From: a virus
Strand: one strand, 5' to 3'
UHGV virus genome: UHGV-1799016
Length of the DNA stretch: 25,786 nt
The translations under genes were made by a program, and so were the position numbers. Within the stretch, counting starts at the first letter, position 1; every line of letters begins with the position of its first letter. The notes below the pieces were generated by a model, which saw nothing but the letters and a program-made list of their open reading frames with translations, was not told the origin of the DNA and searched no databases. Shown one piece after another: positions 2,094 to 18,051 of the stretch.

Positions 2094-2148
2094 GTGTCTA
2101 TTTAAGGGGGGCGTTTCAGGGGGAAAGGTTATATTCGCGCAAGAACAA
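2094..2148 (+). promoter_or_regulatory. Bipartite promoter-like motif, copy A (GTGTCTATTTAAGGG, then TATATTCGCGCAAGAACAA 32 nt downstream)
   Basis: Upstream box GTGTCTATTTA at 2094-2104, downstream box TATATTCG at 2130-2137 (one mismatch to the Bacteroidetes -7 consensus TAnnTTTG), about 25 nt before the ATG at 2163. The same two boxes recur at identical spacing at 17838-17877 and 17997-18051. Confidence 0.4.
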
Positions 2149-2162
2149 ATAAACTAAATATT

Positions 2163-2675
2163 ATGATAGGTACTCTTATTGGAGGTGCGTTGATGTTAGG
2201 TAGCTCTATATACGGTGGTCTTTCGGCTGCGAAATCTGCTGCTAAGCAGCGTAGAATGGTTGAGGAACAACGTGCGAAAAATCAAGATTGGTATAACCGC
2301 AGATATAATGAGGATGGCACGCAACGCGCGGATGCTGTCCGCCTTATGCAATTAACTGAGGATAGTATTCGTAAGCGCAATCGACAAGCTGAGGGGACGT
2401 CTGCTGTGATGGGTGGGGGGCAGGAGCCAGCTGCTGCTGCTCGAGAGGATAATAATCAAGCTATCGCATCTACGATGAGTGGCATTGCAGCGTCTAGTGA
2501 TGCGCGCAAGGATAACATTGAGCGTCAGTATATGGCGCGTGATGATGCGTATAGTAGCCAGTTACAGGATATAGAAGCGCAAAAACAGAAGTCTATTGCA
2601 AATGCTGTAGGTGGTGTAGCTTCTGCAGCTGGAATGTTTGGTCTTATGGATAAAGGAAATGGCACTAATAAGTAA
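2163..2675 (+). CDS. Hypothetical small protein with Gly-rich hydrophobic segments at both ends (possible membrane or virion-associated protein)
   Basis: ATG-initiated 170-aa ORF, first gene after promoter-like copy A. N-terminal MIGTLIGGALMLGSSIYGGLSAA and C-terminal IANAVGGVASAAGMFGLM are glycine-zipper-like hydrophobic stretches around a charged core. Confidence 0.55.
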   Translation: MIGTLIGGALMLGSSIYGGLSAAKSAAKQRRMVEEQRAKNQDWYNRRYNEDGTQRADAVRLMQLTEDSIRKRNRQAEGTSAVMGGGQEPAAAAREDNNQAIASTMSGIAASSDARKDNIERQYMARDDAYSSQLQDIEAQKQKSIANAVGGVASAAGMFGLMDKGNGTNK

Positions 2676-4137
2676 GATTCTAGATAGATTTAAGTCTAAT
2701 GTGGGGGGCGGTGTGACTGCTCCCCCTGCTGCTAATGTGGGTGGTTCGGTTTCAGAAGAAGTGCCTACTCCCGACAATGTGAAACGTAGGCCGTTTATGC
2801 AAGATGCGCCAAAAGAAACATCGAACAGTGCGCAGCCTGTTCAGCAGGCAAATGTGCAGCCTGCTGTGTCAAACGTTGCATCACCTTCTATTGCGCTTTC
2901 CAATGTGGACAAAAAGGTGCAGCAGACGACGCCTAAGCCAGAAACGGATGACCGACCAAAGGTTTTGAAGCCATTGCCAGGAGATAAATATGGGCGTGAG
3001 GGTGTGAAATGGGGGCAGGAAGTTGGTGCGGAGAAACCTTTGTGGAAACCTACGACACATCAAGGTGTGGAATCTGACAAAGAAGGAGGTGCTTCGTCGC
3101 CTATAGATCCAGCGGTGCAGGCGAAGGGGAACAAGGATTTGCGCGATGTTCGCAATGAAACTACTCCTAAAACAACCGTTAGCGCTACGCAGGAGGAATC
3201 GGATGCAGATAGAGAGGTGCGCTCGTACAATGATTTGCTCCGCGAGTTGAAAGAGCGAGCTGCGAAAAAGCCACTCAGTCCAGAGGAGGAGAAAAGAAAA
3301 AAACGTGACAAGTTGATTAGTGGTATTGGTGATGCCCTTGCGTCTGTTGCTAATCTTTACTATACGACCCAAGGTGCGCCCAATATGTACGACCCGAAAC
3401 GCAGTTTGTCAGAAGCCGCGAAAACTAAATGGGATGAGATTGCAGAAAACAACGAAAAAATCGGCAAAGAACGTTTGGCTTATATGATTAAGCAATATGA
3501 GTTGCTGAAGGGCAAACGCAAAGAAAAGGAAGCTAAGGAAGCTGCGGATGCTAAGCTTGAATTGCTGAAAGAACAGATGGAAGGCAAAATGGGACTTGAC
3601 GAAAAGAAATTGGCTGCTGCGATGGACTACCAGAAGGGACGACTGGAGAATGAGAAAGAACGCAACAACAACAACAAAGAACGTAATAGTGTCAATAAAG
3701 AATTGTCGCAGGCTCGATTGGAGGAACAGAAACGACATAATCGTATCTCTGAAGGTCAAGGGGCGACAAGAAATGCTATCGCTCGACAAAACGCGAACAC
3801 TAGGGCTGCGAATAGTGGCTCAAGCGGTGGTGAACGAGGAGACTATGAGTGGCAGGATAGCGAAGGCAATATCCACTATGCGAAGAGTGCTACGGCGCAA
3901 GAACGTAATGCGCGTGCAAATGGCACTTGGAAGAATGGTTCTACTACTACCCAGTCAGAAGAGACACAGAAAGACTATAATAAAAAATCAACCACTACAA
4001 CCAAGACTGAGAATAAAGGATACGCAGTTGTAGATAGGTCGAAAGTTCCTCAAAAGAAAACGCATCAAGCGCAGGCTAAAAAGACAAGCGGTAGTAGTGG
4101 AAAGAAAAACAAGCCGTTAAGTGGTTTCAAAATCTAG
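2662..4137 (+). CDS. Hypothetical highly charged, low-complexity protein (K/E/Q/T-rich, central coiled-coil-like region); start chosen at ATG 2662 rather than TTG 2638
   Basis: Open frame 2638-4137; the ORF-track start at 2638 is TTG, the first in-frame ATG is 2662 (MALISKILDRF). Overlaps the upstream stop by 14 nt and ends 12 nt before the giant ORF. Composition looks intrinsically disordered, with a KE-rich helical stretch (LKGKRKEKEAKEAADAKLELLKEQMEGK). Confidence 0.5.
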   Translation, partial: ALISKILDRFKSNVGGGVTAPPAANVGGSVSEEVPTPDNVKRRPFMQDAPKETSNSAQPVQQANVQPAVSNVASPSIALSNVDKKVQQTTPKPETDDRPKVLKPLPGDKYGREGVKWGQEVGAEKPLWKPTTHQGVESDKEGGASSPIDPAVQAKGNKDLRDVRNETTPKTTVSATQEESDADREVRSYNDLLRELKERAAKKPLSPEEEKRKKRDKLISGIGDALASVANLYYTTQGAPNMYDPKRSLSEAAKTKWDEIAENNEKIGKERLAYMIKQYELLKGKRKEKEAKEAADAKLELLKEQMEGKMGLDEKKLAAAMDYQKGRLENEKERNNNNKERNSVNKELSQARLEEQKRHNRISEGQGATRNAIARQNANTRAANSGSSGGERGDYEWQDSEGNIHYAKSATAQERNARANGTWKNGSTTTQSEETQKDYNKKSTTTTKTENKGYAVVDRSKVPQKKTHQAQAKKTSGSSGKKNKPLSGFKI

Positions 4138-4149
4138 ACAACTTTCAAT

Positions 4150-17837: not shown

Positions 17838-17877
17838 CTATTTAAGGGTGTCCACTAGCCGCAGAGTGCTATCTTTG
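17838..17877 (+). promoter_or_regulatory. Bipartite promoter-like motif, copy C (CTATTTAAGGG, then TATCTTTG 32 nt downstream)
   Basis: CTATTTA at 17838-17844 and TATCTTTG at 17870-17877, a perfect match to the Bacteroidetes -7 consensus TAnnTTTG; same spacing as copies A and B. Starts immediately after the stop codon at 17835-17837. Confidence 0.4.
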
Positions 17878-17926
17878 TGCCGAAGATGTGTGGGTGCACA
17901 CGTTTGAACGTTAATGAATAGGTTTG

Positions 17927-17968
17927 CTTCGCTCCGTCGACGGATGAGTCGGTGGGGCGAAGTTTTTT
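17927..17968 (+). terminator. Candidate intrinsic terminator (9-bp stem, one G-U pair, 18-nt loop, T6 tract)
   Basis: CTTCGCTCC (17927-17935) pairs with GGGGCGAAG (17954-17962), followed by TTTTTT (17963-17968). The loop contains the perfect palindrome CCGTCGACGG. Confidence 0.45.
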
Positions 17969-17996
17969 GTTGTCTCCCCGAGGAGCGTGCTTGGTG

Positions 17997-18051
17997 GTGT
18001 CTATTTATGGGTGTTGCGCGGTGTGTAAGTGCTATATTCGCGCAAAACAAC
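17997..18051 (+). promoter_or_regulatory. Bipartite promoter-like motif, copy B (GTGTCTATTTATGGG, then TATATTCGCGCAAAACAA 32 nt downstream)
   Basis: GTGTCTATTTA at 17997-18007 and TATATTCGCGCAA at 18033-18045; identical boxes and spacing to copy A; about 35 nt upstream of the ATG at 18081. Confidence 0.4.

Follow-up and report, generated by a model that had tools for sequence, protein, structure and literature searches.

A rigidly spaced upstream box and a Bacteroidota -7 element precede virion genes in a Bacteroidales prophage lineage

The virus genome stretch UHGV-1799016, 25,786 nucleotides (nt) in length and referred to here as the window, carries the late region of a Bacteroidales prophage from about position 2076 onward. 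Positions 1-1861 are host DNA, with an outer-membrane-like open reading frame (ORF) and a UbiA/MenA prenyltransferase gene that has a canonical TAnnTTTG upstream. The phage genes considered here lie on the plus strand, and three of their boundaries are marked by a promoter-like motif. Copy A heads an operon for a gp14-like protein of 170 residues (2163-2675; weak T7_gp14 match), a protein of 499 residues (2638-4137), and a polyvalent protein of 4441 residues (4150-17475) with ddrB-ParB, LRV_2, MuF_C, ART-PolyVal, and LPD38 domains. Copy B directly follows a gene for a 97-residue basic protein of phrog_15261 (17544-17837), whose stop codon it abuts. Copy C heads the head morphogenesis operon, which encodes a probable scaffold protein of 246 residues (phrog_22323; 18081-18821) and a probable major capsid protein of 506 residues (18855-20375) whose close homologs give faint to clear SU10_MCP matches; an SU10-adaptor-like protein and then tail genes lie 3' of the capsid gene. 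Each copy of the motif joins an upstream box to a -7 element at a fixed distance, an arrangement that recurs across a large prophage lineage and that we propose as a family of late promoters.

Copy A consists of the upstream box GTGTCTATTTAAGGG (2094-2108) and the -7 box TATATTCG (2130-2137), copy B of GTGACTATTTAAGGG (17834-17848) and TATCTTTG (17870-17877), and copy C of GTGTCTATTTATGGG (17997-18011) and, again, TATATTCG (18033-18040). Direct reading and pattern scans agree on these boxes. Expressed as the pattern GTGWCTATTTAWGGG-N21-TATMTTYG, the motif occurs three times in the window, always on the plus strand. The C of CTATTTA lies at 2098, 17838, and 18001 and the first T of TATMTTYG at 2130, 17870, and 18033, an offset of 32 nt in 3/3 copies that bears out the identical spacing reported in the initial annotation of this sequence. 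The existence of the three-copy motif, also reported there, is equally secure: dinucleotide-preserving shuffles lead to an expectation of 0.01 matches against the three observed, and 0/100 shuffles gave three. CTATTTAWGGG with at most one mismatch is found at three sites in the window against 0.48 expected, and the 40-nt bipartite pattern with up to three mismatches returns the same three plus-strand sites and no further ones. The two strands of the window together hold 33 TAnnTT[TC]G matches and five ATTTAWGG boxes; wherever such a box has a -7-like match within 60 nt, the offset is identical. Some details of the initial annotation require correction. The box prefix, written there as an optional GTGT, is GTGWC; copy B reads GTGAC and therefore lacks a 2-nt insertion. 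The extension TATATTCGCGCAA...AACAA, assigned to copies A and B, is common instead to the first and third copies (2130-2152 and 18033-18054), between which its internal spacing differs by 1 nt. The window-type pattern has no match across 1.1 Mb of unrelated viral DNA, and the variant appears to be rare in IMG/VR as well because an exact-pattern scan of that database gave no match.

Although the window holds the three copies first described, a genome of the window type carries at least four. Three contigs (L096-L098) that carry exactly the 374-residue protein of the window and reach about 10 kb past it contain a further copy just beyond the window, aCATTTAAGGG-N21-TAGATTTG, in the 55-nt gap before a P22-like portal gene. 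The pre-portal copy is also present, in its own box variant, in a phage of 87% identity. Every phage examined has two to four copies, each on the coding strand, intergenic, and 5' of late genes. One relative (L091) has three, before the portal gene, the scaffold gene, and a lysis-proximal gene next to the amidase gene, and all three of its coding-strand intergenic -7 boxes carry the upstream box; the distant relatives L090, L232, L233, and L234 show two copies each in 20 kb of context.

The motif search in related genomes suggested by the initial annotation recovers the same two-part layout, with zero variance in spacing. The 246-residue protein has 267 homologs at E ≤1e-10, and we fetched 80 genomic loci from species-representative genomes, encoding proteins with 41-50% amino acid identity to it and spanning Prevotellaceae, Bacteroidaceae, Muribaculaceae, Rikenellaceae, Porphyromonadaceae, Lentimicrobiaceae, and others. 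TAnnTTTG is present within 160 nt 5' of the scaffold gene in 79/80 loci. Anchoring 72 non-redundant upstream sequences on this element, with positions counted from the T of TA, reveals a family box, AAAAG(A/T)TAAA, at -33 to -24 without any length variation. Its most conserved positions are T-27 and A-26 (71/72 each), A-25 (70/72), and G-29 (58/72), and A-33, A-32, and A-30 are each kept in at least 65 of the 72 sequences. The 20-nt spacer between the box and the -7 element carries no information. TAnnTTTG is present in 72/72, and the next base is C in 60/72. Nearly all loci have the start codon 23-85 nt from the -7 box, a distance that fits 5' untranslated regions.

The window variant, CTATTTAAGGG, occupies -32 to -22 in the same register, the upstream box of copy C falling in the same columns as the family box, and it has A-30, T-27, A-26, and A/T-25 in common with the family. 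Intermediate forms occur at the same offset in relatives of 64% amino acid identity (L090, AACGGATAAGGG), 78% (L087, aGATTTAAGGG and ATAAATATGAC), and 87% (L001, ATATTTATGTAG). The box of copy B is kept as aGATTTAAGGG in L087-L089 and L095-L098, and that of copy A corresponds to aTATaTAAGG in L006, again in register, with TATATTTG in place of the -7 box. The shared register and the bridging intermediates indicate that the window motif is a local variant of a lineage-wide two-part element. The initial description of a promoter family specific to this element therefore holds for the CTATTTAAGGG variant, which is lineage-specific, but not for the architecture, which is common to a large prophage lineage. 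By itself, the family consensus cannot identify the element in AT-rich viral DNA, since only 11 of 120 precede a scaffold homolog among the matches listed (at least 120) in an IMG/VR scan. Several of the loci (L009, L031, L042, L043, L053, L071, and L074) come from metagenome-assembled genomes labelled Eubacteriales, Eggerthellaceae, Sphaerochaetaceae, Oscillibacter, or Anaerovoracaceae; promoters of Bacteroidota grammar under such labels probably reflect binning errors rather than true hosts.

The promoter recognized by the Bacteroidota primary sigma factor, sigma-ABfr, combines TTTG at -33 with TAnnTTTG at -7 (Bayley 2000, as summarized in PMC7366714), and the published spacing of the -33 element is variable (PMC7366714). 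The downstream box is this -7 element, as the initial annotation had recognized: it is exact in copy B and in the 72 relatives, and the C that comes after it and its distance from the start codon agree as well. In copies A and C one base is changed, giving TTCG where 72/72 relatives have TTTG, and weaker basal recognition is therefore expected for these two. The upstream box, again as first noted, is unlike the -33 element. Direct reading finds no TTTG 19-21 nt 5' of the -7 box in copies A-C, and the 72 relatives show no informative bases in columns -24 to -19, leaving the family profile without TTTG there. The box is also longer than the -33 element, lies further upstream, and keeps an invariant distance, in contrast to the variable spacing of -33. 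From the published position of the -7 element, transcription would start about 11-13 nt 3' of the T of TA, which predicts start sites near 2141-2142 for copy A and near 18044-18045 for copy C. The box would then lie at about -45 to -35, abutting the -33 position and extending 5' of it. A scan for E. coli-type sigma-70 promoters showed no enrichment, and that model is not relevant to this phylum.

Different promoters of the same phage resemble one another in the box and hardly at all in the spacer. In a comparison of 20 sites from eight phages, scored by identity over -36 to -21 with label permutation, box identity is 0.72 within a phage versus 0.52 between phages (p=5e-5), and it is 0.54 for orthologous promoters in different phages. 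Spacer identity is near random (0.29 within and 0.25 between phages). The boxes thus compared are phage-specific variants: TTTA(A/T)GGG recurs at all four copies of the window type; L232 uses TTAACAGATAAA, and two of its promoters, 9 kb from each other, match along 17 nt, GTCGGTTAACAGATAAA; L233 uses AGATATAC, with a private ...AG(A/T)TATAC at both copies; and L090 has TTAACGGATAAG(G/C)GC at both of its copies. Because the box is homogenized while the spacers are not, duplication or conversion of whole promoters is unlikely. The simplest explanation, as far as sequence comparison can suggest one, would be a single trans-acting reader for all copies of a phage. The box classes (GATAAA, CTTAAA, GTTAAA, AATAAA, and others) are spread over host families, with several classes inside one family, and this independence from host taxonomy argues against a reader specified by the host.

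A host reader could nevertheless be imagined if the copies were simply strong promoters that need host factors alone, with the box serving as a UP-element-like site for the C-terminal domain of the RNA polymerase alpha subunit (alpha-CTD) or another conserved part of the polymerase. The proximal UP subsite of E. coli spans -46 to -38 and reads AAAAAARNR. The family consensus is likewise A-rich and would coincide with that position, at about -45 to -36, and its retention in phages of many host families is what a universal host reader would produce. The near-invariant bases at G-29 and T-27, however, are base-specific in a way that a degenerate A/T tract is not, and the spacing is rigid. Moreover, the window clade has the G-rich CTATTTAAGGG instead of the A-tract in all four copies, and L232, L233, and L090 each have a private variant common to their own copies, which also argues against a host reader, as does a box class that does not follow host family. 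We judge host-only promoters to be rather unlikely, while giving them the most weight among the accounts that dispense with a dedicated phage factor.

The explanation that we favor, with moderate confidence, is that the three copies and the pre-portal copy are late (virion-gene) promoters of a temperate, podovirus-like Bacteroidales phage whose box is read in trans. The -7 element, TAnnTTTG or, in copies A and C, TAnnTTCG, would be read by the host RNA polymerase carrying the primary sigma factor of the host. An upstream box of about 12-15 nt would stand in for the -33 TTTG, with its core (T-27, A-26, and A/T-25) at an invariant distance that corresponds to a 23-nt gap in the family, and it would act as the docking site for a single trans-acting protein, most likely encoded by the phage. 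From a fixed face of the DNA and a fixed distance, the bound protein would either recruit RNA polymerase or activate it, and all late units would thereby be turned on at once. The conserved box occurs in multiple copies in a constant orientation, and multiplicity, a retained -7 element, a missing -33 element, a rigid shared box, and phage-specific variants that co-vary within a phage form the signature of activator-dependent late or middle promoters.

Phage Mu offers a close parallel: its four late promoters, Plys, PI, PP, and Pmom, need protein C, which binds 5' of or overlapping -35 (PMC4461284). The prophages described here resemble the Mu C and P2 Ogr systems in having about four promoters per genome before morphogenesis and lysis operons, with an upstream site common to the copies at a fixed position and a -35-type element that is poor or absent; host polymerase and sigma factor would be used in both, and a putative regulator gene ends the early region. 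P2 Ogr and T4 MotA follow the same principle as Mu C. T4 middle promoters combine a MotA box centered near -30 with a sigma-70 -10 element, through sigma appropriation by MotA and AsiA. There, as here, a host -10-type element is kept and the -35-type element is swapped for a phage-specific box at a fixed distance, although our box would lie further upstream, at about -45 to -35 (core at about -39 to -37 from the predicted start). There are also differences from Mu and P2. The host is a member of the Bacteroidota with its -7/-33 grammar, activator dependence is proposed here by analogy, and the 28 early-region proteins of a near-complete relative include no homolog of C/Mor or Ogr/Delta.

Several observations weigh against a trans-acting activator of late genes. 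The Pfam scan of those 28 proteins, which left positions 1-4998 of the contig outside its range, found no sigma-70, Mor/C, Ogr/Delta, MotA, or AsiA domain. The box has no dyad symmetry, neither AAAAG(A/T)TAAA nor GTGWCTATTTAWGGG being palindromic, and in this it differs from the sites of Mu C and P2 Ogr. The position of the A-rich family box at the proximal UP subsite allows for a contribution of host alpha-CTD, and short-patch gene conversion could be a partial cause of the co-variation within phages. Promoter activity itself is argued from comparative evidence, and lateness is read from gene content rather than from timing.

The initial annotation had linked the motif to a dedicated regulator or sigma factor. 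The regulator fits the co-variation of boxes within a phage; the sigma factor fares less well, because neither Sigma70_r2 nor Sigma70_r4 matches any of the 28 early-region proteins, and an activator-type factor is therefore likelier. These proteins include RecT, an SMC-like ATPase, Lin1244_N, VRR-NUC, NinB, YopX, HicA, and an HTH_3 protein, together with a Cys-rich zinc-finger protein that has a weak Q-like PHROG match (E=5e-4), far below any curated cut-off. A box reader may instead be sought in phrog_27246, a protein of about 150 residues that is a candidate on gene linkage alone: its gene always adjoins a box-promoter or the terminase gene (L012 2440-2934, minus strand; L028 2407-2865, minus; L227 14924-15391, plus; L100 8196-8633, minus). 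The family has 886 unannotated homologs. It is helical, with an internal duplication of both sequence and structure (SPAKRFWVSEERA / QPAPKFYLTPRT) and two helix-turn-helix-like halves, and its fold has no significant match in the PDB. That the reader belongs to a new phage transcription factor family, with phrog_27246 as the candidate, and replaces -33 recognition by the Bacteroidota primary sigma factor is a tentative idea to which we assign a minor share of probability.

The same small, all-helical, duplicated protein with its helix-turn-helix-like halves could also be cast as a divergent phage sigma factor that reads both boxes as -35-like and -10-like elements. Small divergent phage sigma factors do exist, among them T4 gp55 and SPO1 gp28 and gp34, and a bipartite motif that is rigidly spaced and whose upstream box is specific to the phage would suit one. 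We consider this improbable: the downstream box matches the host consensus exactly, and no sigma domain was detected among the 28 early-region proteins of the relative. In the window clade, a leader hairpin and T-run overlap the likely start codon of the phrog_27246 gene (L227 14893-14935; L100 about 8700-8650, minus strand), which suggests control of this gene by attenuation or antitermination. A possible fifth copy of the motif 5' of the L227 phrog_27246 gene was rejected; at that place the window-type L100 lacks the upstream box, although it has the -7 box and the leader hairpin. The idea that the box contains a tandem 7-nt repeat was also discarded, as the self-similarity peak at a shift of 7 is weak (0.40), is not significant, and is explained by A-richness.

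The family box has a second neighbor on the opposite strand. In 53/72 loci the reverse complement of the box (TTTA) has a reverse-strand -7 box at a distance of 19, 20, or 21 nt, and L007-L086 show back-to-back divergent promoters about 46-50 nt 5' of the forward -7 box. In these loci the box may, judging from its placement, double as a -33-like element for a divergent phrog_27246/terminase operon. Taken to its limit, the canonical 19-21-nt distance would make the box nothing but the -33 of a divergent promoter. Against this, the box is kept in 9/72 loci that have no divergent promoter and in the non-divergent copies, which comprise the portal- and lysis-proximal ones of L091, L232, L233, and L234 and all of those in the window, and its spacing is fixed to the forward -7 element and variable to the divergent one. 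The invariant forward spacing and the retention of the box without a divergent promoter indicate that the forward promoter is its primary partner. Recombination, packaging, or replication sites, the other way to read the repeats without late promoters, would not be expected on the coding strand in intergenic DNA 23-85 nt from a start codon, a placement unsuited to pac, att, or ori sites. We regard either of these explanations, the divergent -33 or the non-promoter repeat, as very improbable.

Copy B differs from the others in what follows it. The initial annotation placed every copy at an operon boundary, and this is accurate for copies A and C; no gene follows copy B, which instead heads a short, terminated, non-coding unit. 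About 45 nt beyond it, a hairpin of 16 pairs (17926-17963) followed by TTTTTT is the strongest terminator-like structure in the first 20 kb by terminator scan. The predicted non-coding transcript of about 90 nt (17883-17972, plus strand, ends predicted) would comprise a 5' hairpin, a single-stranded stretch, the 16-bp terminator hairpin, and a U-run, with a fold z of -5.9. The succession from box and -7 element through a short region to a GC-rich hairpin and a T-run recurs in three subclades (L087 3350-3425 and L001 2845-2920 being the equivalents), with unrelated transcribed and hairpin sequences. Rfam and tRNA searches of 17780-18100 at E up to 1 gave no match. The unit may be a small RNA, a control unit of the lambda PR'-tR' kind, or the plain terminator of the upstream polyvalent-protein operon. 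A 54-residue ORF across the terminator and copy C (17914-18078, plus strand, starting MNRF) is probably spurious because it is not conserved in relatives; its M(N/K)RF start is common with L001, and the remainder is not conserved.

This arrangement, in which a promoter, a short transcript, and then a strong terminator come immediately before the head genes, brings to mind lambda PR'-tR' and its 6S RNA, and with it Q-type antitermination, in which the box would be the loading site of a phage antiterminator that associates with RNA polymerase at the promoter. The conservation of the ~90-nt unit in three subclades, the Cys-rich zinc-finger protein of the early region with its Q-like match, and the leader hairpin and T-run at the phrog_27246 gene would all speak for such a scheme. 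Its difficulty is that the box is found where no terminator is. Copies A, C, and D (the pre-portal copy) have none between promoter and gene, and copy C is a box-promoter that lies past the terminator of copy B; distant relatives carry the box but not the copy-B unit. Multiple late promoters per genome are atypical of Q systems, and the match to Q falls too far below the curated cut-offs to be a credible homolog. Q-type antitermination thus seems to us to have little chance of being the explanation, about as little as a phage sigma factor.

Viewed as late promoters with a box read in trans, the copies would belong to a known kind, the phage late-promoter family with an activator box. What appears to be new is its Bacteroidota version, in which a box at about -45 to -35, set off from the -7 element by a constant 23 nt, would replace the -33 element. 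This version is retained throughout a large uncultivated prophage lineage, and its copies within one genome evolve together. Full-text literature searches found no late-promoter class described for temperate Bacteroidales phages. To our knowledge, hardly any work exists on how Bacteroidota phages control transcription, the virion RNA polymerase of crAss-like phages excepted. A late regulon of two to four promoters per genome would be recognizable in hundreds of prophages of Prevotellaceae, Bacteroidaceae, Muribaculaceae, Rikenellaceae, and Porphyromonadaceae, and it could help to annotate late operons and prophage boundaries from sequence. It also provides a testable model made up of a -7 box, a rigid 23-nt spacer, an upstream box, and a named candidate reader. 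Should each phage-specific variant of the box have a cognate factor, the variants could become a source of orthogonal inducible promoter systems for the engineering of gut Bacteroidales. If phrog_27246 is indeed the reader, the system would be a late switch specific to Bacteroidota phages, like sigma appropriation or class II activation, and the divergence of box and reader specificities by lineage would have produced natural orthogonal promoter-regulator pairs.

The left end of the element lies close to copy A. Aligned with L006, similarity starts sharply at CTAAAGTAG (2076), and the sequence to its left is unrelated. From this abrupt start, copy A is at most about 20 nt from the left end. 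A conserved block, CTAAAGTAGTTCGTAGTAGT (2076-2095, plus strand), lies just 5' of copy A and is kept in L006; judged by this alignment, it is probably the left end itself, with the host-phage junction at about 2075/2076. The reverse complement of CTAAAGTAGTTCGTAGTAGT contains a -7-like TACTTTAG directed out of the element.

Window-wide tRNA and Rfam searches at gathering thresholds returned nothing, and the intergenic region, searched as DNA against deposited phages, gave no match; with the capsid protein, Bacteroides phage BF1-TP2 is the sole match among them, at 27% identity. Phages whose downstream proteins are identical to those of the window have polyvalent proteins of 5738-5926 residues with N-terminal WH_1, DUF8437, and SNF2-helicase modules, and these differences in size and N-terminal content indicate that N-terminal modules are swapped among near-identical phages. 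The ADP-ribosyltransferase domain of the polyvalent protein, which is probably injected, recalls T4 Alt, which modifies the alpha subunit of RNA polymerase. Directly 3' of the major capsid gene, a relative (L096 6501-6592, corresponding to about 20376-20467 of the window) has a GC-rich hairpin, GGCCGCGAGTTT...AAACTCGCGGCC, that looks like the terminators or attenuators common in phage late operons.

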